From the NCBI GenBank assembly GCA_038065435.1, contig JBBTQZ010000029.1, forward strand, positions 1 to 28,770: a stretch of DNA of 28,770 nt, in the 5' to 3' direction. Below, one piece after another: positions 14,604 through 28,770 of the stretch. Position 1 is the stretch's first letter. Every line of letters starts with the position of its first letter. The stretch comes from Patescibacteria group bacterium. GTDB taxonomy: Bacteria; Patescibacteriota; Minisyncoccia; Phycocordibacterales; WO2-35-19. Below the pieces are notes generated by a model. It was not told where the DNA came from, did not search any database, and saw only the letters and a list, made by a program, of their open reading frames with translations. The position numbers and the translations under genes were made by a program.

Positions 14604-17600
14604 CTAAAACTCTATGAAACTGGGGTTTAAAGCGAAGTTGGCTGTCACACTTTTGGCTCCGTTCATAACTATGCTACAAATGCCAGTACCAGTACAAGCT
14701 CCGCTCCAGCCGGTAAATACTCTACCCGGAGCGGCAGTAGGGGTAAGGGTAACTGTAGAGTTTTCAGTAAAGTTGGCACTTTGAGAAGCACACCCCGAGC
14801 CGCAATTTATACCAGCCGGAGAACTCACCACTGTCCCCTGCCCCGACTTTATGACAGTAAGTTGGAATTGATTGGCGTTCACTGTTAGCGATATTGAATC
14901 AGTAGTTCCCCCGGGGTCACAGGTAAGAGTATAAGTACGGGAAGCGGTAAGCGCTTCAGACCGGGTGTCAGATGTGCCTGTCCAGCCACTACAACCACCA
15001 GTACAAGTGACGGAGCAGGAAGTGGCATTGGCGCAAAGACTCGGAGTAGTGCCGCACCATTTTACAGTAGCTGTCTGTCCAGAATTGATAGCTGGAGGAT
15101 TATCGGAATCATTCACTTTTAAATCAGCGGTAGCCACTGGGCCGATAGTGAAGCTGTTTGCATCAGAGACTGTTGAAACACCATTGGTGGCGCTGACATT
15201 TAGAGTATGAGGGCCGTTAAAAGCGCTGTTGGCATACATGTTAGCCACTTCAGTAGCCGTCAGAGCGCGGTTGTAAACCGCTACTTCATCTATGGTACCA
15301 GCAAAATAAGTATTAGCTTCGGCAGAATATTTACGTCCAATTTCAGCTCTAGAAGAAATACCGTAATCTACTGCTTGGCTTCTGCAAGCATCTGTATGTT
15401 GTAAAACATTATCGACATAAACCTTAGCAGTAGCACCATCATAAACTCCAACTACAAATTTCCAACCAGCACCTCTCAAATCAGTAGTACCTAAAGCATA
15501 GCAATCAGCCCAGCCATAACCAGTCTCTCTAACGATAAGACTAGCTCTACCGAGCCCAGCGCCGTTTTGCAAAAAGAAATTCCAACCGTAGACACCACCG
15601 CTCTCACTAGAAACAGAACTTACAATTTGAGGATATGCTACTTGACTTGCATTTGCATTTATCCAAGCAGCAACCGAAAAGGCCCCGCTTGGTTTTAAGC
15701 TTGCATTGTTTCCTAAATTTATATATTGAGAACTACCATTAAGACTTAAAGCTCTACCAAATCTTCCGGCTGTCCAAGTAGGGGTATTTATTAAATTACC
15801 AGTATTACTGTTACCACTTCGGTCATAAGTAGTGATGCCAGTATTTTCAGCAAAATCGTAAGCCGCAAGTCGAGTAGCACTAACCCCAGATATGGTTGGC
15901 ATCTGCACATAAGAAAGTTGAGTGGTGTTGGCGCCAGCGGGGCAATAGGTATACGGCATCCGAGGTCCGATATCTGATCCCCCTACCCCATTAGAAAACC
16001 ACATGAGGCAAGTATTGGAACCACCGGTCGTCCAAGAAAGAGGCATATTTGAGGTATCGGTATAATTGCTTCCTTCGGCTGGGCTAGTGATACTAACCGA
16101 CAGAGCACCACAAGCGCTGGCCACTGTGCCAGAAACACTAGCGCTTAAAGGGGAGGAACCGGAAGTATTGGTAGCTCTAACTGTATATGAATGAGTAGAA
16201 CCTAAGGCTAACCCTGTATCTGAAAAAGATAGTCCGGAACCATTATAAACCGGAGTGCCTCCCCCATCGCGATAGACTTGATAACTAGTAGCGCCAGAGA
16301 CGGCATTCCAAGAAATATTGAGCCAATTATTACCACAGGTACTTGGAGCGGCACTAAGTCCAGTCGGAGTGGCAGGGATAGTAGGCGGAGGAGGTACAAG
16401 AGCACATTTATATTCCACCACATTGCTGCCATTTTTTCGGAAAGTGTAGCTGTAGTTATTTTTTTCGGTGGTTTGGGAAGGACTGTTCCACACAGGAGAA
16501 GGTGAAGCGGGAGGACTAATCCAGCCATTACTTGTTTGATGTCTATTCCAAACAGAGCCCGTATTTACCCAATACGCCTTTTTATTATTTACCAAATCAA
16601 GAAAAGGAGAAGATGTTATAGTACCCAAACTCCCCGGACCCTGATCGTTCCATTGCAAACTCCAACTACAAGTTTCTGTTGACCCACTAGCGTAATAGCA
16701 TATTTGTTCATAAAGTTTTGATTGATTAGAGCTTGGAGGAGCCACTACTGCTATATGATCCGAATAATAAAAATTATCTGTTGGATAATACTTCCCTACC
16801 GGATTTTGACTTGCCTGCAATGCACTACTCACCTCATACCAAGTATCATTGCAAACTGTTTTGCGCGAGGGTTTGACGGTGATGGTGTAAATTAAAGAAT
16901 CACCGCAAGACGGTTGAGACACTGAATTCACATTAATATAAAAAGTATAATCTCCGGGAGGAGTAGAAACGGAAGGTGCTATAGTAAAGCCAGAATATGA
17001 AGGTTCATCTCCCGATGGGCCTTCATAAGCTTCTCCACTACTAGTAGATGGCGTACATGTAGCACCAACAGGGCAACTAGCATAAGTAGCTGTCCAACCT
17101 TGGAAGTAATCATTAGAATATACAACAAAACTAGCAGTACCAGAATCTCCTTGATAAAGAGTTAAGTTTGTCGGCCCATTTACATTAGCTCCTATTGGAT
17201 CATTTGTACAACTACCCCCGCCTCCGTCAGAACAATCAGCCGGACAAGATGTTGCATCTTCAGAACCTGTACAAAAACCATCTCCGCAAACAGCGCCACC
17301 ACAACTACCACCACCATGATTAGCACAAAATGTACAGCATGACTCATCAGAACATAAATAATAAGTAATATTGTCATTACATGTACATTGAGGTGTAGCG
17401 TCTCGTTCACTACGTTTCCATTCTAAACAAGAAGCTTCAGTTTCTTGGCAAGAATCTGTACATGTACCAGTACATACTATTGGATCATTATTCCAAATAT
17501 AATAAGGTGGTGGACCTTGTGTTGGGCATATTAAACTAGCAAAAGAATTATTAGGAACGACTAAAAAAATAAAAAAATAAAATAAAATAAAAAACCCCAC

Positions 17601-17633
17601 AAACAAAAAAGCTTTATTTAATTTCAGTTTCAT
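14604..17633 (-). CDS. Large secreted multidomain surface protein (Cys-rich region, Ig-like, FN3, LamG, InlB-B-like repeat)
   Basis: Signal peptide MKLKLNKAFLF...SFA; CGDGFC..E....CP.DC; FN3 (PTGL..ISWNAV..YQVYRDG..YTVRA); LamG (FSVAAWIN..W.FVVGVYDG..GTIDEVAVYNRAL); C-terminal LTVIKSGQGTV..FTGWSGAC..SVTANF. Start placed at ATG 17633 (the track gives 17666). Confidence 0.88.
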   Translation of the reverse strand: MKLKLNKAFLFVGFFILFYFFIFLVVPNNSFASLICPTQGPPPYYIWNNDPIVCTGTCTDSCQETEASCLEWKRSERDATPQCTCNDNITYYLCSDESCCTFCANHGGGSCGGAVCGDGFCTGSEDATSCPADCSDGGGGSCTNDPIGANVNGPTNLTLYQGDSGTASFVVYSNDYFQGWTATYASCPVGATCTPSTSSGEAYEGPSGDEPSYSGFTIAPSVSTPPGDYTFYINVNSVSQPSCGDSLIYTITVKPSRKTVCNDTWYEVSSALQASQNPVGKYYPTDNFYYSDHIAVVAPPSSNQSKLYEQICYYASGSTETCSWSLQWNDQGPGSLGTITSSPFLDLVNNKKAYWVNTGSVWNRHQTSNGWISPPASPSPVWNSPSQTTEKNNYSYTFRKNGSNVVEYKCALVPPPPTIPATPTGLSAAPSTCGNNWLNISWNAVSGATSYQVYRDGGGTPVYNGSGLSFSDTGLALGSTHSYTVRATNTSGSSPLSASVSGTVASACGALSVSITSPAEGSNYTDTSNMPLSWTTGGSNTCLMWFSNGVGGSDIGPRMPYTYCPAGANTTQLSYVQMPTISGVSATRLAAYDFAENTGITTYDRSGNSNTGNLINTPTWTAGRFGRALSLNGSSQYINLGNNASLKPSGAFSVAAWINANASQVAYPQIVSSVSSESGGVYGWNFFLQNGAGLGRASLIVRETGYGWADCYALGTTDLRGAGWKFVVGVYDGATAKVYVDNVLQHTDACRSQAVDYGISSRAEIGRKYSAEANTYFAGTIDEVAVYNRALTATEVANMYANSAFNGPHTLNVSATNGVSTVSDANSFTIGPVATADLKVNDSDNPPAINSGQTATVKWCGTTPSLCANATSCSVTCTGGCSGWTGTSDTRSEALTASRTYTLTCDPGGTTDSISLTVNANQFQLTVIKSGQGTVVSSPAGINCGSGCASQSANFTENSTVTLTPTAAPGRVFTGWSGACTGTGICSIVMNGAKSVTANFALNPSFIEF

Positions 17634-17713
17634 TAAGTATATTATACAACCTTCTTCCTCTAACATCGATAAAAATATGTGGATAACATCATGTATTTAA
17701 AATAAAAGCAAAA

Positions 17714-20973: not shown

Positions 20974-21809
20974 GGGGCATTTTCCATGAAAGAATCTGCC
21001 CCTTTTTCTTCTCCAAAAATCTTTGTGGCAGACAACGGAAATCGTTCATAAAAATATCGCAAAATTTTAAATTGGTTATCTGTGCAATTCTTCTTACAAT
21101 ATTTTTTGAAGTAAAAATAAAATTTTTTTAAATACTGATCTCGTTTTTCTAATTTAAGATTATCAATTAAAAATCCTCCTATTAAAAAACAGCTGTGTAT
21201 ATCTGTAAGAACAAAATCTTTTTTCATAAATGGATCAGCTGACCAATGCCATAAAAAACCAGCATTTTCTAACTTCTCTTCAAAAACAGAAGTGTAATGA
21301 TTTCCTTTTAAACCATAAAACATATCTTCTGATTTAATTTTCTTAAGAGAGTTGATTCGAAAAACCTTGAAACTATTTTTGTTTAGTCGTAGGACTTTTT
21401 TCACGCTGGCACCACACATTATTTTCAAACTTATCTTGAATTTGTTATCAGGAAAAGGGATACATGAAATATCAAAAAAATTCAAACGACTAAATCCTCT
21501 TATGATTTCTTTCTCATAAGACGAGGGGGTGAATAATTTTTTTGACAGCGTATCAGCAACAATCCAAAGATCAATATCACTTTTGTCTCCTGTTTTACGA
21601 AATTCTTCTAATGAACCAGAGCGCAAACATACAGCGAGTGATCCTGTAAGAAATAAAGAATATTGTTTTTTAAAAAGAGAGTCGCACGATAGCGCGATGG
21701 CTCTAATTGTTTTTGTCAATGGCTTTGATAATTGCGCAACATTCTCTAAATTAATGAGATTGTCTGTATTTTCCAAATTTTTCAGAGGGTCATTTTTAAT
21801 TATGCCCAT
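20970..21809 (-). CDS. Pol-beta superfamily nucleotidyltransferase
   Basis: LFLTGSLA...KSDIDLWIV (hGS...DhDh) motif. Confidence 0.7.
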   Translation of the reverse strand: MGIIKNDPLKNLENTDNLINLENVAQLSKPLTKTIRAIALSCDSLFKKQYSLFLTGSLAVCLRSGSLEEFRKTGDKSDIDLWIVADTLSKKLFTPSSYEKEIIRGFSRLNFFDISCIPFPDNKFKISLKIMCGASVKKVLRLNKNSFKVFRINSLKKIKSEDMFYGLKGNHYTSVFEEKLENAGFLWHWSADPFMKKDFVLTDIHSCFLIGGFLIDNLKLEKRDQYLKKFYFYFKKYCKKNCTDNQFKILRYFYERFPLSATKIFGEEKGADSFMENAP

Positions 21810-22846
21810 ATTTTTGATACTAAATTATAGGCTTCACCGTCTTCCATTGGGTAGGGAGCAGATTTCATGTAATAAGCACACGCCCCTTTTATAACTCCGC
21901 CATGCTTCTTATCCTTCTCGGCTTTTGCGATTCGTATTAAATCAATAATTGAACCAGCGCTGTTTGGTTTATCGTCACTCTCAAGCTGAATTGAAATTTT
22001 TACTTTTGAGCCAGCAAACACTTCTGCTTCCATGTCAAACAAGGCTTTTTTAAACGCTCCTTTTGTCGGATCATAATGGTGACCGATATGATTCGGCACT
22101 CCTTCGGATATGAATAAACTTAAGGACTTATATTTAGATATAAGTTTAGTCTGTGCTCGATATATAAAATTTGCAAAATCCGTATTCCCTCCTATATTTA
22201 TCTGTGAGGACTTAATAATTTTCGCACCCCTATCTTTTAGCATGTTGAGAACCGACCGATGGAGCATTGTTGAACCAACCTGACTTTTAATATCATCACC
22301 AATCAATGGAAGTTTTTGCTTCTCAAATTGTTGTGCAATATCGGATTTTTGAGCAAATATAGTTGGTATACAGTTTACAAACGCACATTTAGCTTTTAGT
22401 GCCGATAAACCATAAAATTCTGTCGCCTCGATTGAACCAGTCGGAAGAAGATTTATTAAAATATCAACTTTATACTTTTTTAAAACATTGGGAACATCAA
22501 CTACTTTTTCTTTAGATTCCTTAACAAATTTTTGTAAATGTTCCGGGTTACCATCAAGCGTAGGTCCGCGCAAAACAGGGGCTTTATTCAATACTTTCAA
22601 ATTAGCTATACGATAAAAATTGTTTGGAGACTCGTAAATAGCTTCATCGATAGTTTTACCTACTTTTCTATCTGAAATATCAAACGCTACTACTATTTCT
22701 ATATCATTTAACGAATATTCGCCTAGTATAGGAAACAATAATCCCTCCGTTGTTTTGCCTTGTTGATAATAAGTAAGACCTTCAATTAAGCTACCCGCAC
22801 AATTACCAAGACCAACAATTGCGACATTAATTTTTCTTTGTTTCAT
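21800..22846 (-). CDS. ino1: myo-inositol-1-phosphate synthase (bacterial/archaeal type)
   Basis: VAIVGLGNCA, GDDIKSQVG, NIGGNTDF, DKPNSAG, YMKS. Confidence 0.9.
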   Translation of the reverse strand: MKQRKINVAIVGLGNCAGSLIEGLTYYQQGKTTEGLLFPILGEYSLNDIEIVVAFDISDRKVGKTIDEAIYESPNNFYRIANLKVLNKAPVLRGPTLDGNPEHLQKFVKESKEKVVDVPNVLKKYKVDILINLLPTGSIEATEFYGLSALKAKCAFVNCIPTIFAQKSDIAQQFEKQKLPLIGDDIKSQVGSTMLHRSVLNMLKDRGAKIIKSSQINIGGNTDFANFIYRAQTKLISKYKSLSLFISEGVPNHIGHHYDPTKGAFKKALFDMEAEVFAGSKVKISIQLESDDKPNSAGSIIDLIRIAKAEKDKKHGGVIKGACAYYMKSAPYPMEDGEAYNLVSKIWA

Positions 22847-23598
22847 ATAACCTCTTTAATTAGTTTATTAAATTGTTTCCACTCAATTTTGCTTGAGTGT
22901 CCTCCATCGATAATATGCCGTTTCGAATTTTGATGTTCATCTTCAAGAGCTTTAGACATAGCGACAGGAGTTACTTTATCTGCCTTACCACAAAAAATCG
23001 TGTGTTTGATATTTTGATTTATAAATTTTTTATCCATATCAGGAATAATAATTTTCCCTTTTATTTGACTAAAAAACTTCTTTTTGTTCTTAAATCGATA
23101 AGAAAAAGGATATGCAAAAGACATAATTTCTGATGTCTCGTCGGCAATTTGCAAGTTGGATTCATCAACTTTATAAGCAATCATACCCCAAAGTGGAGAT
23201 ATAAAAATAGATTTATTGATTTTAGGAAAAATAAATTTTTTTAATGATAAGCCGGCAATCAATCCACCAAAACTCGTGGCGAAAATAATTATTTCTTTAT
23301 GTTTTACTTTTTCTGTTTTATGCGGGCCGTATTGGATAATTCTTTCATTTAAAAATTGATACCAAAATTTTACATCCTGAACAGCGTTTTCTATAGAAAA
23401 TTTCCCATGGCTATCGAATGTGCCACTATACATTAAAGTCAAAACATTATATTGCTCTTTATTTAAAAAATCTATAAATTCGGAACGTCCAGGATATTTG
23501 GGAAATCCTGGCAAAAACAAAATAGTGCCTTTTATCTCTTTCGTTGTGTTGGCCGGATACCAAATCGCCCTTTTGTTTTCTTTCAATTGTGTAAACAT
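22843..23598 (-). CDS. Alpha/beta hydrolase
   Basis: LFLPGFP oxyanion loop, ATSFGG nucleophile elbow, GKAD.VTP Asp, GGHS His. Confidence 0.85.
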   Translation of the reverse strand: MFTQLKENKRAIWYPANTTKEIKGTILFLPGFPKYPGRSEFIDFLNKEQYNVLTLMYSGTFDSHGKFSIENAVQDVKFWYQFLNERIIQYGPHKTEKVKHKEIIIFATSFGGLIAGLSLKKFIFPKINKSIFISPLWGMIAYKVDESNLQIADETSEIMSFAYPFSYRFKNKKKFFSQIKGKIIIPDMDKKFINQNIKHTIFCGKADKVTPVAMSKALEDEHQNSKRHIIDGGHSSKIEWKQFNKLIKEVI

Positions 23599-23599
23599 A

Positions 23600-23779
23600 T
23601 TATTTTTTATTTTGTAATAATTTTAAAATTTCCTCTTTTACAAAAAATTTCTTTCCTTTTGGATTAAGTCGACGAGATTTTATAAGACCTTGTTTTTCCC
23701 AGCGATAAATAGTAATGGCTCTAACATTAAAAAATTTAGCTATTTCATTTGTGGTTAGATAGGGGTTGTTATTTTCCAT
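23600..23779 (-). CDS. Small MerR/excisionase-like HTH protein, 59 aa
   Basis: YLTTNEIAKFFNVRAITIYRWEKQGLIKSRR; start placed at ATG 23779 (the track extends it to 23842). Confidence 0.85.
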   Translation of the reverse strand: MENNNPYLTTNEIAKFFNVRAITIYRWEKQGLIKSRRLNPKGKKFFVKEEILKLLQNKK

Positions 23780-23930
23780 ACATTTGGTATCATTTAATAA
23801 CATTGATATACTTATAATAACATGGCTATAAATCTTATGCAATATGTTTTAGCGTAACCCTCACGCTCCCCCAACCTTCTTGTTTCAAGCCATTTTTTAC
23901 GGAGCCAATTTTAAATACTTCTGGAACCAG

Positions 23931-24047
23931 TTTTCAGGATTGTATCAAGTGAACGTACGCGTTCCGCTTGGCACCCTTCCATGAAATAACTACCTCTGGA
24001 TCGGCGAAGATCCTATCTCTCCCGTCTACACTCTCTGGACCAAATAA
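23931..24047 (+). pseudogene. Orphan 3' fragment of a TIGR03437-like gene, copy B, with an internal TGA
   Basis: FSGLYQVNVRVPLGTLP*NNYLWIGEDPISPVYTLWTK*; 83/117 nt identical to 18816-18932 by hand count. Confidence 0.82.
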
Positions 24048-24072
24048 CTGTGAAGGGTCACCCTCCCCCAAC
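24042..24072 (+). repeat. AAATAACTG-N3-AGGGTCACCCTCC-YCCAAC repeat, copy 1
   Basis: 27/31 nt identical to 26127-26157; palindromic core AGGGT-C-ACCCT. Confidence 0.85.
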
Positions 24073-24073
24073 C

Positions 24074-24120
24074 AAAAAGCCATTAGACCCGTCAACCAAC
24101 GGATCACCTAGTGGCTTTTT
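24074..24120. terminator. Intrinsic terminator after fragment B
   Basis: AAAAAGCCATTAG...CTAGTGGCTTTTT outer stem; inner CCGT-CAACCA-ACGG. Confidence 0.8.
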
Positions 24121-24131
24121 TCTTTACCCCT

Positions 24132-24150
24132 GGGGAGGGTCACCCTCCCC
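24132..24150. repeat. Palindrome GGGGAGGGT-C-ACCCTCCCC (core-only copy)
   Basis: Perfect 9-bp arms around one C, upstream of the ATP-grasp gene. Confidence 0.85.
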
Positions 24151-24212
24151 CACAATGATTGATTCTTTTGCATTATTAATGTATCTTGCCAACAGATAAG
24201 GAGTCTTTGAAA

Positions 24213-25202
24213 ATGAAAAATGTATTGTTTGTCGCTGGACTAGCAGAGCGATATTATTACGAGCCCTTCATTGTGGCTTGTGAGAACAGGGTGAATGTGT
24301 TCGTGTTCGACCCCACCATTATACCGCGTAATGGTGCTCTGAGTATTTATTTGAGCACGGACGGAAACCTAAGTGGTTTTATTGATACCTTCAGACTCAA
24401 CGGAGAAAACACAGAAAATGTCCGCTTGTCTCTTTGTGATATTCAAACTGCATGGTATCTGCGGGAAAACATCCAGCACCAAAACCAGAAACATAATTCT
24501 TTGGAAAGACGCTTTGCAGATAATGAATCCTATGGAGCGGTGCGTTCTCTCCTTTCCGCTCTTGATTGTAAGTGGATTAACAAAAAGGAAACTGTGGAAT
24601 TCCTTTCCAGCAACAAACTTTACCAACAAAAAGTTGCATTGGAAGCCGGACTCGTCGTACCCCCAACATTAGTAAGCAATAGCCCAGAAGATGTTGTTAA
24701 TTTTTCGAAACATTGCAACGGTCTGTTACTCAAAACCATCGGTTATATAAAACTGGACGACGATGGGAAATATTTTTTGTACTCCAACCGCTTCACTCAC
24801 ACAGAAATCCAAACAAGTGACCGAGCCATACACAACGCTCCAGTATTTGCTCAAAAGTACATCGAGAAACTTTATGAACATCGGGTTATGGTTATCGGTA
24901 ACCGAGTTTTGTCTTGTAGGATCAACTCGCAGGCCAGCCAAGTTTCAAGAATAGATTGGCGACATTACGACTTCGAAAAAGTGGCTCATGACTACGTGGT
25001 ATTGCCTGAGGATATACAACACAAACTACTCTGCTTCATGTCGAAGATTGGTCTCCGTTATGGAGCCATTGATCTCATAGAAACCCCGTCAGGAGAATTT
25101 GTGTTCCTAGAGATCAATCCTTCTGGCCAATGGGGCTGGATACACGATCTGGCTGGTCTCCCCATACCAGAAGCCGTAGCCGAAATGCTCGAGTCTATTT
25201 GA
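24213..25202 (+). CDS. ATP-grasp RiPP maturase (MvdC/MvdD-like graspetide synthetase)
   Basis: FADNES..WIN, SNKLYQQKVA..GL.VP.TLVSN, PVFAQKYIEK..RVMVIG, IDWR, GLRYGAIDLI.TP.GEFVFLEINPSGQW.W; AAGGAG SD before ATG 24213. Confidence 0.9.
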   Translation: MKNVLFVAGLAERYYYEPFIVACENRVNVFVFDPTIIPRNGALSIYLSTDGNLSGFIDTFRLNGENTENVRLSLCDIQTAWYLRENIQHQNQKHNSLERRFADNESYGAVRSLLSALDCKWINKKETVEFLSSNKLYQQKVALEAGLVVPPTLVSNSPEDVVNFSKHCNGLLLKTIGYIKLDDDGKYFLYSNRFTHTEIQTSDRAIHNAPVFAQKYIEKLYEHRVMVIGNRVLSCRINSQASQVSRIDWRHYDFEKVAHDYVVLPEDIQHKLLCFMSKIGLRYGAIDLIETPSGEFVFLEINPSGQWGWIHDLAGLPIPEAVAEMLESI

Positions 25203-25231
25203 AACACGTCGATGCTCATTGATGCTCGTTT

Positions 25232-25266
25232 GAAAAGCCAAAGTTTGCAAGAACGGCGGCTTTTTT
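25232..25266. terminator. Probable bidirectional terminator between convergent genes
   Basis: GAAAAGCC...GGCTTTTTTC imperfect hairpin. Confidence 0.6.
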
Positions 25267-25269
25267 CTT

Positions 25270-25785
25270 CTACTCAAAGAATCCTCCATCTTTATAAAAT
25301 TTAATTAACATCAGGGCTGTTTTTTTCTCTGACTTTTTGACTTTTTTTAGCCATTTTTGGCTTTCTGACAAACGCTTGCGAATAAGCAGATACAGTAGAC
25401 GAGTAATTTTGTTGAAATTATCTTTGGGTTGATACTTGAGAGCCATGGAGCTGTATTTAAGTGCCATTTTTTTGTTTTTATACCCCCAAATCGCATAACT
25501 GATTGCATGGTGATACCAAAGCCATAATATAAGTCTTCTTTCATGCCCTTCTTTTTTGGAAAGATACGTTGTATCAATTTTCTCTAATATATTTTTGATC
25601 TTAGTTGTAATATGCCTAGGACTTATATAGTCTTTGATCTTGGATATAACAATTTTCTGATCCTCATTTAAGTATAGACCGTAAAGCTCATCAGTATTCT
25701 CTGCATGTAGCAATTTATAAACATTGCTGATTAAACTATTCCCATGATCTTTTTTTTCGGTTGACCTTTTTGTTACTTCACTCAT
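25270..25785 (-). CDS. Hypothetical helical (TPR-like) protein, 171 aa
   Basis: Open frame; ALKYSSMALKYQPKD resembles a TPR helix pair; AT-rich. Confidence 0.7.
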   Translation of the reverse strand: MSEVTKRSTEKKDHGNSLISNVYKLLHAENTDELYGLYLNEDQKIVISKIKDYISPRHITTKIKNILEKIDTTYLSKKEGHERRLILWLWYHHAISYAIWGYKNKKMALKYSSMALKYQPKDNFNKITRLLYLLIRKRLSESQKWLKKVKKSEKKTALMLIKFYKDGGFFE

Positions 25786-25798
25786 AAAATTATGCTAA

Positions 25799-25826
25799 CG
25801 GGTCGCGGTTTTAATGCCGCGACCCG
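25799..25826 (-). terminator. Strong hairpin 3' of the precursor gene (terminator or stability element)
   Basis: Perfect 10-bp stem CGGGTCGCGG/CCGCGACCCG, 10 nt past the precursor stop; weak U-tract. Confidence 0.7.
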
Positions 25827-25836
25827 ATCGGGAACC

Positions 25837-25998
25837 TTATCTGCTCGCATCTTCACACTGATCATGCATCTCTTGTTGCTGACCAGCGGTAGTTACGACC
25901 GTAAAGTGACTGGCAGTAGGATGAGATACTTCCGGTTTCTCCTCAATTCGTCGAAGCAGAAGAGGAGTCTCTTCGGTTTCTTTGATAAGAACTGGCAT
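25837..25998 (-). CDS. Putative graspetide precursor peptide, 53 aa (not in the ORF track)
   Basis: MPVLIKETEETPLLLRRIEEKPEVSHPTASHFTVVTTAGQQQEMHDQCEDASR; GAAAGGAG SD; Thr/Ser followed by Glu/Asp in the C-terminal core. Confidence 0.8.
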   Translation of the reverse strand: MPVLIKETEETPLLLRRIEEKPEVSHPTASHFTVVTTAGQQQEMHDQCEDASR

Positions 25999-26073
25999 TT
26001 ATTTCTCCTTTCCTCAAGAAGCATCTTGCAAGCATGCTCCTATCCAAAATACAGTCTTACCTGTCTATTAAAC

Positions 26074-26101
26074 ATTATAAATCTCAAAATCATTCTGTCA
26101 A
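26074..26101 (-). promoter_or_regulatory. Consensus sigma70 promoter for the precursor gene
   Basis: TTGACA (26101-26096), 16-nt spacer, TATAAT (26079-26074). Confidence 0.8.
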
Positions 26102-26126
26102 TTTACTTTTTTCAACAACATGTTCT

Positions 26127-26157
26127 AAATAACTGGAGAGGGTCACCCTCCTCCAAC
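26127..26157 (+). repeat. AAATAACTG-N3-AGGGTCACCCTCC-YCCAAC repeat, copy 2
   Basis: 27/31 nt identical to 24042-24072. Confidence 0.85.
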
Positions 26158-26212
26158 AAAGAAAGCTCCGGAACCCTTTTCAAATGGAGCTGGGGTTATA
26201 TAAAAATAGAAA

Positions 26213-26686
26213 TTATTTGCGGATAGTGATGCTTATTTCTACTGTGATGTCGTCAGTGATGGAGTTCTTTGATACAGAGACTTGCATTGCCCCACTCTTA
26301 CCTTCCTTTTCGGCCAGAATAAATGCCGAGGTTGCTTCTTGTGTGGAATTTTTGATGGCCCAACCACTTTCCTCCAAATACTCACTGTAAATTTCAAAAT
26401 TTTCTTCTACAGTTTTTTTGGAATAATAGCGGTAAACTTGCTGTTCTTCGCGGCTATCTACCGTTCTCACTATTTCATTCCTCTGCATAGGTGCACCCTC
26501 CTCAAGAGGTAAATCGGTCGGCAGCAGAGGAGCCAGCTTGCCCGGCTCTACATATTCTATAGTAACTTTGGGAGGCACAACTACCTCTTCCTCTTCTTGA
26601 GTGCCCTTAAACCAACCGCTTCTATAGCCCCAATACCCCAGAGCGATCAATACGATCAAAAAAAGTACTAACAATTTGTCTTTCAT
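26213..26686 (-). CDS. Hypothetical membrane-anchored protein, 157 aa
   Basis: N-terminal TM helix; follows the DsbA-family gene in the same operon. Confidence 0.8.
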   Translation of the reverse strand: MKDKLLVLFLIVLIALGYWGYRSGWFKGTQEEEEVVVPPKVTIEYVEPGKLAPLLPTDLPLEEGAPMQRNEIVRTVDSREEQQVYRYYSKKTVEENFEIYSEYLEESGWAIKNSTQEATSAFILAEKEGKSGAMQVSVSKNSITDDITVEISITIRK

Positions 26687-26691
26687 AATAT

Positions 26692-27399
26692 TTATTTTAG
26701 AGCTGTTTCTAATTCTTTTTCAAAATCGGCCAAAGGCAGTGCTCCGACCACCCTCTTGCCGTTTATAAAGAAAGTTGGCGTACCAGAGACTCCAGCCTTA
26801 TTGCCTGCGTCAAAATCTTGTTTTACCGCAGCTTCCGCCTCGCCGTTGTCCAAACATTTGTTAAACTTCGCGGTGTCCAACCCCAAGTCAGAGGCGTATT
26901 TCTTTAGATCCACAATATCCAAACCAGCGCCATCGGATTGCCCTTTGCTAAAAAGAATATCGTGATAAGGGAAAAACCGTCCCTGTCGGTGCGCGCATTC
27001 TGCCGCCTCACTCGCCTTTTGAGCATTTTTATGAAAACTCAAAGGAAAATGACGCACTATAAACTTTACTTTGCCCGTGTCTATATATTTTGCTTTTATA
27101 CTGGTATATGTTTCTTCGAAAAATTTCTGGCAAAATGGGCACTGAAAATCTGTAAACTCCACCACTTCTACCTTGCCTTTGCCAATACTCGGAGCGTAGA
27201 GTCTATCCTCCAAATCAACTTTCTCGGCTGGTAAATTTTGCTGACCTTGCACGACAGCACCTTTTGCTAAAGGAGAGCCTCCGGCAATTTTGTTTGCCCC
27301 CACAGATATACTGATCGCGATAATAATAGAGCCAAGTAATATACTAGCGGGGATACTCCAATCTTTTTCTTCATTAAAAAGTTTATCTAGTATGCTCAT
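26692..27399 (-). CDS. DsbA-family thiol-disulfide oxidoreductase
   Basis: TM anchor, EFTDFQCPFC, RHFPL, GTPTFFING. Confidence 0.93.
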   Translation of the reverse strand: MSILDKLFNEEKDWSIPASILLGSIIIAISISVGANKIAGGSPLAKGAVVQGQQNLPAEKVDLEDRLYAPSIGKGKVEVVEFTDFQCPFCQKFFEETYTSIKAKYIDTGKVKFIVRHFPLSFHKNAQKASEAAECAHRQGRFFPYHDILFSKGQSDGAGLDIVDLKKYASDLGLDTAKFNKCLDNGEAEAAVKQDFDAGNKAGVSGTPTFFINGKRVVGALPLADFEKELETALK

Positions 27400-27445
27400 A
27401 TTGTTTTTCTGAATTGTTTAGGTTCATTTTAATCTTTTTATCTAT

Positions 27446-28770
27446 TTACTTCAAGTCAAGCTCCACTCTATCCCCCTCCAAGAGGCCAGATACCACTTCC
27501 ACTATTCCACCTTTACCGATGAGACCTGTGGTAATCTCTGTCTCGCTCACCTCCCCTCCTTCAATCTTTTTTACAAAAGATTTGCCATCTTTTTTTGTTA
27601 CCGCAAATATCGGAATGGAGAGTGCGTCTCCCATATAATCAGTCTCTATATTTATATTTGCCGTCAAGCCACTTTTTATGCGCTCATCCATCTTTTGGAG
27701 TTCAATCCGCACTTTATAATTTGCCACACCGTCTACAATGGTCTCTCCCGGATCTATGAAGACTACGGTGCCCTCAAATACTTCTTCAGGCAAAGCGTCA
27801 AACACTATTTTCGCTATATTACCAATATTTAGTTTTGATATATTTATTTCCGAAACATTGGCTTCAATGTACATATCTGATTCAGAGATCATAGAGATCA
27901 GTGTCTCTCCCGCTTTGGCTATACCGCCCACTTTTGCCTCTTGCAGAGTAACAGTGCCGCTAAAAGGAGCAACTATTCTGGTTTTATATAGATCTGCTTC
28001 TAAAGAGCTTACGGAAGATTTTGTTTGGCTCAATTTTGCTTCTACTCCTCCGATGGTGGAAATGCTCTTTTTGGCTGTCGCCACAGTACTACGAGCGCTG
28101 TCTACAGCGGTTTTATATCCAGTTACCGTACTTTCGTATTGATATTCAGCTGGAGCAAAAGAGTTTATGGCGTAAGCCACTCTATCTATAAACAGCGACA
28201 CGGTGTTCATTCTTTCAATTGCCTTATAAGAAAATTGCCCGGCATTGTCTGGAGTAACAAGCGATAGCTCCGCCTTCCATTCATTGAGGAGTCGCTCTAC
28301 AGATCTGCGAGTAGTATTGAGCTCAAGGGCTACCTCACTCGGCACTTTGAAATAGTGAGTGAAGTTGCCATCATCAAATTTGACTTCAAATTGTGGATTC
28401 TCTTTTGGTTGCTTAAAGAACTGATCAACTTTGTTGCGCACAGCATTATCACTCGTAGAATAGCCGTCCATTATAGCGAGAGCTATATTTTTGCCCTGAT
28501 CCTTATAGTCAGCCTCTGCTTCTGTTAGGACCGCTTTCTCTTTGGAGATAAGGGCGAGCTGTGAGGTATTGTCTAGCTCTGCAATGAGAGTCCCTTGTCG
28601 TATATAATCCCCCACTTCTACAAAAGATCTGGCTACTCGCCCCCCAATATCAAACCCTAGATCCACTTCGTCTCTAGCCTTGGTCTTGCCTGTTATATTT
28701 ACTTCTTGGATCAGGTCCGCCCTTACCACAAACGCAATTTCCTTTTTTTCTTTGCCATTTAGGCCAATCA
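27446..28770 (-). CDS. Efflux periplasmic adaptor (HlyD/MacA-type membrane fusion protein), 5' truncated
   Basis: V.VGD.I..G.LIA.LD lipoyl half, I.APFSGTV, EANVSEINI, GLTANINI; frame open to the window end. Confidence 0.9.
   Translation of the reverse strand, partial: IGLNGKEKKEIAFVVRADLIQEVNITGKTKARDEVDLGFDIGGRVARSFVEVGDYIRQGTLIAELDNTSQLALISKEKAVLTEAEADYKDQGKNIALAIMDGYSTSDNAVRNKVDQFFKQPKENPQFEVKFDDGNFTHYFKVPSEVALELNTTRRSVERLLNEWKAELSLVTPDNAGQFSYKAIERMNTVSLFIDRVAYAINSFAPAEYQYESTVTGYKTAVDSARSTVATAKKSISTIGGVEAKLSQTKSSVSSLEADLYKTRIVAPFSGTVTLQEAKVGGIAKAGETLISMISESDMYIEANVSEINISKLNIGNIAKIVFDALPEEVFEGTVVFIDPGETIVDGVANYKVRIELQKMDERIKSGLTANINIETDYMGDALSIPIFAVTKKDGKSFVKKIEGGEVSETEITTGLIGKGGIVEVVSGLLEGDRVELDLK

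Follow-up and report, generated by a model that had tools for sequence, protein, structure and literature searches.

Among the graspetides (omega-ester RiPPs, peptides made by the ribosome and modified after translation), the microviridins are produced with two paralogous ligases from a Lys-containing TxKxPSDx(D/E)(D/E) core, which acquires two esters and one amide. The tiny genomes of Patescibacteria, which supposedly live on other microbes, encode hardly any natural products; because of this, a conserved modified-peptide cassette is a rare handle on their interaction with hosts or competitors. Graspetide loci of the candidate phyla radiation (CPR) have been placed, in silico only, in two branches of the ATP-grasp tree, with a branch 1 core signature of TxxxTx(6-10)Dx(1-4)D and with TPR and "cluster 23" proteins encoded in the loci; every characterized graspetide inhibits proteases (Makarova et al., 2022, Biol Direct 17:7, PMC8939145). 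Here we describe positions 24213–26101 of a stretch of 28,770 nt (hereafter the window) that constitutes an entire 28.8-kb contig (JBBTQZ010000029.1, assembly GCA_038065435.1), and which very probably holds a three-gene graspetide module of Patescibacteria, composed of an ATP-grasp ligase, a precursor peptide of 53 amino acids (aa) and a small TPR-like protein. The genome, that of a groundwater bacterium, is 601 kb (92.7% complete), a typical size for Patescibacteria, and the nearest named relatives of the window proteins are from Parcubacteria/Paceibacteria metagenome-assembled genomes.

The ATP-grasp ligase and its probable precursor peptide

The module and its expression signals comprise the following features:

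24213–25202, plus strand: ATP-grasp graspetide ligase (macrocyclase), 329 aa (NCBIfam and PDB matches, invariant ATP-grasp residues).
25270–25785, minus strand: accessory protein of 171 aa, small and TPR-like, assigned to "family A", with motifs WLWYHHA and PNKITRLLY (12 of 21 related loci; AlphaFold2 model).
25799–25826, minus strand: GC-rich 10-bp hairpin between the precursor and accessory genes (folding versus shuffles).
25837–25998, minus strand: predicted graspetide precursor, 53 aa, with leader T11-P-L-L-L-R-R17 and core T33-V-V-T36-T37...E43...D46...D50 (homologs in 20 other loci).
26005–26012, minus strand: Shine-Dalgarno GAAAGGAG, 6 nt upstream of the precursor ATG (read directly from the letters).
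26074–26101, minus strand: sigma-70-type consensus promoter TTGACA-16-TATAAT of the precursor (12/12 matches).

The ligase gene carries AAGGAG 9 nt upstream of its ATG, and the MKNVL start of the protein is common to its homologs. A preliminary description of the locus had called the protein MvdC/MvdD-like, and its top matches, among protein families as among solved structures, are graspetide maturases throughout. The NCBIfam matches are TIGR04187 (4e-58), MvdC (2.3e-51), MvdD (3.6e-47) and grasp-with-spasm (3e-30), with RimK reaching just 1.5e-10 versus these four RiPP maturase models, and the only solved structures matched by its sequence are graspetide ligases (MdnB 5ig8, 3.8e-35; AMdnB 7m4s; CdnC 7mgv; MdnC 5ig9; 9bou). 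The ATP-grasp catalytic positions K174, R224, D287, E300 and N302 are invariant across 20 ligase homologs. On these sequence criteria, the ligase belongs to the MdnB/MdnC (MvdC/MvdD) maturase clade and has an intact active site. A genome-wide search identified a single ligase copy in this genome. Many metagenomic homologs exist at 50–64% identity; among 401 sampled genomes of the class, only 26 encode a homolog of any kind, all at 29–45% identity, and ligase distribution is therefore patchy.

The precursor gene is convergent to the ligase gene, and its ATG is the first codon past an in-frame stop. Its absence from the gene track, remarked upon in the preliminary description, is annotation-dependent: the 53-aa gene is called in two ENA assemblies of the same population. 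In assembly GCA_964356115.1 (NCBI), the 53-aa gene is replaced by a called 144-aa open reading frame (ORF) at window 25792–26226 (plus strand), which runs antisense to both the precursor and its promoter and is probably mis-annotated. The gap between ligase and small ORF had been given as about 630 bp, which agrees with the 635 bp between the ligase stop and the peptide stop, but the gap is not empty: it holds the conserved 171-aa gene, which had been overlooked.

Homologous peptides were sought with a hidden Markov model (HMM) seeded with the window peptide and two small ORFs neighboring ligase homologs, run on the six-frame ORFs of all fetched loci; the count takes in ligases of at least 45% identity on contigs with enough flank, which amount to 20 distinct loci, the window not counted. 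A homologous peptide adjoins the ligase in 20/20 of these loci, a positive outcome of the check for similar small ORFs beside ligase homologs that had been proposed earlier. In the alignment of the 20 peptides (A4), the invariant leader residues are P12 and R17 and the invariant core residues T33, E43, D46 and D50; L15, P22, V35, T36, T37, P42, M44 and Q47 are conserved in at least 90%, and the family keeps exactly three hydroxyl (T33, T36, T37) and three carboxyl (E43, D46, D50) side chains. Alignment A4 thus contains what marks graspetide membership, namely a linked precursor with a conserved leader motif and a conserved Thr and Asp/Glu core, and it supports the leader-like motif and single Thr/acid core that had been read from the hidden precursor. 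Compared with the nearest relative, locus L042, whose ligase is 62% identical, the window has 12 synonymous and 0 non-synonymous changes in the 23 codons of the core; this shows that the frame is translated and selected, and the small ORF is a real gene whose core is under purifying selection. The precursor family is widespread, its three Thr and three acidic residues form a clean pattern, and its members are short enough for direct heterologous expression.

The small ORF might alternatively be a conserved small protein unrelated to the ligase chemistry (e.g., a regulator of the TPR-like gene), with the ligase acting on a different substrate; this would accommodate ligase scores under the curated RiPP maturase cutoffs. 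However, the peptide follows the ligase and not the accessory gene: its order relative to the accessory gene is variable, but in every case it is either convergent to the ligase or, within the cluster, on the opposite strand. In L040, L046, L048, L055 and L056 it is immediately next to the ligase, with the accessory gene placed elsewhere. The leader resembles known graspetide leaders, and conservation falls exactly on Thr and Asp/Glu, all of which renders a peptide foreign to the ligase highly improbable.

The leader T-P-L-L-L-R-R-I parallels the microviridin PFFARFL, and also PFLTRF and PFILRF at loci L068 and L124. Distant ligases of the class (30–40% identical) have no neighboring homolog detectable by the peptide HMM, and other precursors occur there. 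Different candidate precursors adjoin the ligases of L068 (2179–2409, plus strand; leader PFLTRFIEKP) and L124 (3116–3319, plus strand; leader PFILRFAEP), both with tails rich in Thr/Ser and acidic residues. Within its own family, the window peptide falls in a subgroup with L042 and L043, characterized by Q42 in place of Pro, C48 and a short tail ending D50-A-S-R. The QQQ and Cys that the preliminary description singled out as unusual are present in the window peptide, but they are traits of this small subgroup, as Pro42 is found in 18/20 relatives and the Cys is not conserved in A4.

The TTGACA/TATAAT promoter, Shine-Dalgarno and 10-bp hairpin previously proposed for the small ORF were each located as described. 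The promoter is the sole perfect TTGACA-16-TATAAT site within 23500–26800. Within a 76-nt context, the hairpin has a folding energy of -26 kcal/mol, with z = -4.1 relative to shuffles, and 0/200 shuffles fold equally well; because there is no U-run directly behind it, it looks like an attenuator or RNA stabilizer rather than a full terminator.

The TPR-like partner, possible export, and a proposed pathway

The 171-aa gene is on the peptide's strand, fills the 635-bp interval and ends 68 nt from the ligase stop. Its product has no Pfam or NCBIfam match; residues W88, W90, H92, H93, N125 and T128 are invariant in family A. This family accounts for 12/21 related loci, in varying order and orientation and at times in two copies; family B, a 230–270-aa Pfam-recognized TPR protein, accounts for 5/21, and family C, a 170–196-aa protein with a weak DUF6624 match in two of its four members, for 4/21. 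The QHG, TDR and FGTQY motifs of family C match the "cluster 23" alignment of PMC8939145. All 21 loci carry exactly one accessory family (A, B, or C), none two and none zero, and the TPR-like partner is effectively obligatory in these cassettes.

The AlphaFold2 model of family A is confident (pLDDT 89) and all-helical, and among solved structures it comes closest to small TPR domains that bind peptides (Sec72, Cpr7, FKBP51, Rgg2, 14-3-3), all matched weakly (E > 0.1, TM ~0.5); its ESM Atlas neighbors are TPR families. The N-terminal half of family C weakly resembles peptide-binding TPR domains or chaperones (CHIP, IpgC, PcrH). The three families share an h-h-Y-x-H motif and TPR-like models; homology among them was considered, and profile-profile probabilities of 20% (A versus B), 1.5% (A versus C) and 1.3% (B versus C) are not significant. 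These models point to a peptide-binding helper as the probable role of the 171-aa protein. Family A has 176 representatives in a library of 1.84 billion proteins, and no fusions of its domain to the ligase were found when these were looked for. Longer members have the domain fused to a weak SprT-like zincin (HExxH) region or to a weak TraB/PrgY-like region (L128 4001–5464, P0218; L130 4001–5368, P0131), and an SMC_N/AAA_15 ATPase gene adjoins the SprT-like fusion gene. As a clue to graspetide processing, these fusions were given little weight, as there is no ligase nearby in L128 or L130.

No signal peptide, dedicated exporter or peptidase is encoded within the cassette. The preliminary description reported neither protease nor exporter, and an exporter is indeed absent from the 2-kb cassette; however, a MacB-type exporter and HlyD adaptor are encoded directly upstream on the same strand. 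Upstream of the precursor, the window encodes a membrane-anchored protein of 157 aa, followed by a DsbA-like protein and then by the HlyD-type adaptor (27446–28729), and longer contigs of the same population add an ABC ATPase and a MacB-type permease past the window end, the gene order on the peptide's strand being MacB-type permease, ABC ATPase, HlyD adaptor, DsbA-like protein and 157-aa protein (window 26213–28729; L125/L126 12001–16488). One contig at strain level, L126, has no call for the 157-aa gene, and its interval is reduced by 157 nt. The neighboring MacB/HlyD system could serve export of the peptide; MacB/HlyD genes are not recurrent at the other related loci. An alpha/beta hydrolase (22843–23598) and a helix-turn-helix (HTH) protein (23600–23842) were discarded as parts of the system, being likewise not recurrent at other loci. 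Membrane sensor histidine kinases (HisKA and HATPase_c) adjoin 6/21 related loci (L044, L045, L046, L055, L056, L063).

In the pathway that we propose, the strong promoter would drive synthesis of the 53-aa precursor, and the hairpin behind the precursor gene would probably keep its mRNA in excess over that of the TPR-like gene. The convergent ATP-grasp ligase would recognize the leader T-P-L-L-L-R-R, the counterpart of the microviridin PFFARFL, and with ATP would activate the side-chain carboxylates of E43, D46 and D50; these would be esterified with the hydroxyls of T33, T36 and T37, and at most three lactone rings would result. In the simplest arrangement the rings would be nested, with T37 paired to E43, T36 to D46 and T33 to D50, so that a stapled hairpin forms about the A-G-Q-Q-Q turn. 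A new ring topology of the window peptide is possible. The TPR-like protein, as the conserved partner, would most likely be a peptide-binding helper that presents the precursor, holds the product or confers immunity. Leader removal and export may follow.

The same biosynthesis might yield a product that acts inside the cell, with the cross-linked peptide serving as a ligand of the TPR-like protein (a signaling or regulatory pair, as in the analogous TPR receptors that bind peptides) and not as a secreted protease inhibitor or weapon. Such a role would suit a cassette that has no signal peptide, dedicated exporter or peptidase of its own and in which the TPR-like partner is always present, as well as the peptide receptors among the structural neighbors (Rgg2, RNPP-type, EEVD-binding TPRs) and the sensor histidine kinases beside 6/21 loci. 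We nevertheless consider it unlikely, given that no fold match is better than weak (E > 0.1), a DNA-binding or output domain is absent from the TPR-like protein, the MacB/HlyD exporter is encoded just upstream here, and the characterized graspetides are all protease inhibitors (PMC8939145).

Several observations weigh against the graspetide module as proposed. The ligase scores under the curated NCBIfam cutoffs for every named maturase model, and therefore represents a separate, distinct clade. The window peptide has Q at position 42, which is Pro in 18/20 relatives. Complex prediction for ligase, precursor and 171-aa protein, with the latter as partner, returned scores of 0.01, 0.46 and 0.01, all under the mark and neutral as to a complex. 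A leader peptidase was not found, no RNA run was found to hold this stretch, and no experimental study of any CPR graspetide or of this precursor family was found in the literature searched.

Flanking repeats and possible mobility

The cassette (~24079–26126) sits between two copies of a direct repeat:

24042–24078, plus strand: left copy, 37-nt direct repeat containing a REP-like GGGTCACCCTCC hairpin (84% identical to 26127–26163).
26127–26163, plus strand: right copy, a terminator-like hairpin 50 nt past the stop of the 157-aa gene (repeat comparison).

Both 37-nt copies share the flanks AAATAACTG and CCAAC, which are found in 0/19 of the other genomic copies of the hairpin. The hairpin itself, a repetitive extragenic palindromic (REP)-like palindrome with the consensus ~TGGGGAGGGTCACCCTCCCCCA, has 21 copies in the 601-kb genome versus 0 for a reversed control; the copies are often in close pairs and often behind genes, terminator-like, and those in the window are at 24055–24066, 24137–24148 and 26140–26151. 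The GGGTCACCCTCC hairpin is ruled out as a cassette-specific site by the 21 genomic copies; what sets the two cassette ends apart is the extended 37-nt flanks alone.

Module-flanking direct repeats at E <= 1e-8 occur in 5/17 related loci with usable flanks (L037, L048, L058, L059 and L120), with lengths of 28, 32, 35, 45 and 319 nt, the last at L048. By comparison, 0/596 random pseudo-modules in this genome reach E <= 1e-8, and 4/596 reach the weaker level of the window. In the window and in 4/5 of those loci, one repeat copy is located at, or at most ~110 nt past, the 3' end of the adjacent gene. There is no recombinase inside the repeat-flanked cassettes. The stronger flanking repeats at the related cassettes suggest that these graspetide cassettes are mobile.

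A ligase match is absent from two genomes of the same genus (93–94% complete) and from two further genomes of the same family, and a third same-genus genome encodes only a 38%-identical ligase on another contig. The HlyD-DsbA(-157 aa) synteny is kept in those relatives. A clean empty site was sought in the congeners and none was found, the DNA beyond the HlyD-DsbA-157-aa block being variable.

This distribution, together with the direct repeats that bracket the cassette and the lack of RNA evidence in the runs searched, would also be expected if the cassette were a passenger of recent acquisition, now silent or in decay in its present genome. Such a state has a very slim chance of being correct, as the three ORFs are all intact, the promoter and Shine-Dalgarno are at consensus, the core is under purifying selection relative to the homolog with a 62%-identical ligase, and the same cassette is seen in several assemblies from two studies. 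A graspetide module remains our preferred reading. A broader proposal, which we put forward tentatively and regard as rather doubtful, is that the CPR modules are small mobile cassettes that have no recombinase of their own, settle just past a resident gene's 3' end or terminator and leave a second copy of this segment, and that their obligatory TPR-like or cluster-23-like partner is a new graspetide component (a peptide-binding helper or immunity factor).

Two other features of the window are recorded here. The stretch 21000–24000 has low GC (31–34% versus ~42% around it) and contains a myo-inositol-1-phosphate-synthase-like gene, the alpha/beta hydrolase gene and the gene of an excisionase-like HTH_17/MerR protein of 80 aa; this region beside the cassette may have been acquired separately, as an islet. 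At 14604–17666 (minus strand) is encoded a protein of 1020 aa that has both Laminin_G_3 and InlB-B-repeat-like domains and is probably a surface protein.

Comparison with described graspetide systems

The window ligase is homologous to the microviridin ligases (MdnB/MdnC acting on MdnA; MvdC 2.3e-51, MvdD 3.6e-47; 5ig8, 5ig9), the two leaders share the pattern P-h-h-x-R-x-h, and Thr and Asp/Glu, the cross-linking residues of microviridin, are the residues predicted to be cross-linked in the window core. In contrast to microviridin, the window system has one ligase, the single copy in the genome, rather than two, and an unrelated core sequence with neither Lys nor the TxKxPSDx(D/E)(D/E) motif; as there is no Lys, no omega-amide is expected. 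The cassette also differs in having no acetyltransferase and no dedicated transporter, and these differences place it outside the microviridins.

Like plesiocin and thuringinin, which are hairpin graspetides with a single ligase, the window system has one ATP-grasp enzyme that would be expected to make all of the rings, and a peptide with a Thr-rich N-terminal half and an acid-rich C-terminal half (general knowledge; PMC8939145). Unlike them, the window peptide has no sequence similarity to either and has a single core, not repeats. Its core, T33-x-x-T36-T37-x5-E43-x-x-D46-x3-D50, does not fit the thuringinin pattern TxxTxxxExxDxD (as quoted in the preliminary description), in that the T-to-E and D-to-D gaps differ.

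The closest described systems are the CPR branch 1 loci of PMC8939145. The preliminary description stressed the CPR setting, but graspetide loci of CPR, with this very precursor family among them, had been published in silico in 2022. The window peptide belongs to the family of precursor clusters 1871 (e.g., KKT85345.1) and 4012 (KKU81073.1, KKT38822.1), with which it shares the leader TPLLLRR and the core ...H-M/F-T-V-V-T-T-x-G-x-x-(P)-E-M-x-D-Q-x-E-D; sequences of the form TPLLLRR...HMTVVTT...EMHDQQED are found in the supplementary alignments of that paper, and KKU81073.1 is the peptide of locus L055 and is 50% identical to the window peptide. The spacing T33...T37...D46...D50 fits the branch 1 signature TxxxTx(6-10)Dx(1-4)D, and the ligase is 55–60% identical to the ligases of branch 1 loci (GW2011_GWA1_47_8 and GWF2_44_8b, 58% over full length; assigned by identity). 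As in branch 1 loci, a TPR or cluster-23-type protein is present, namely the 171-aa TPR-like protein here and family B or C in sister loci; the motifs WYHHA and PNKIT of the 171-aa protein do not occur in those parts of the PMC8939145 supplementary files that were covered. Unlike most of the cluster 1871/4012 family, the window copy has Q42, Cys 48 and the short D50-A-S-R tail. The cassette is, therefore, a new example, from a minor subgroup, of the graspetide family catalogued in silico in 2022, to which the window adds the confirmation of a precursor missed by annotation, a TPR-like partner that is effectively obligatory, and cassettes that appear mobile.

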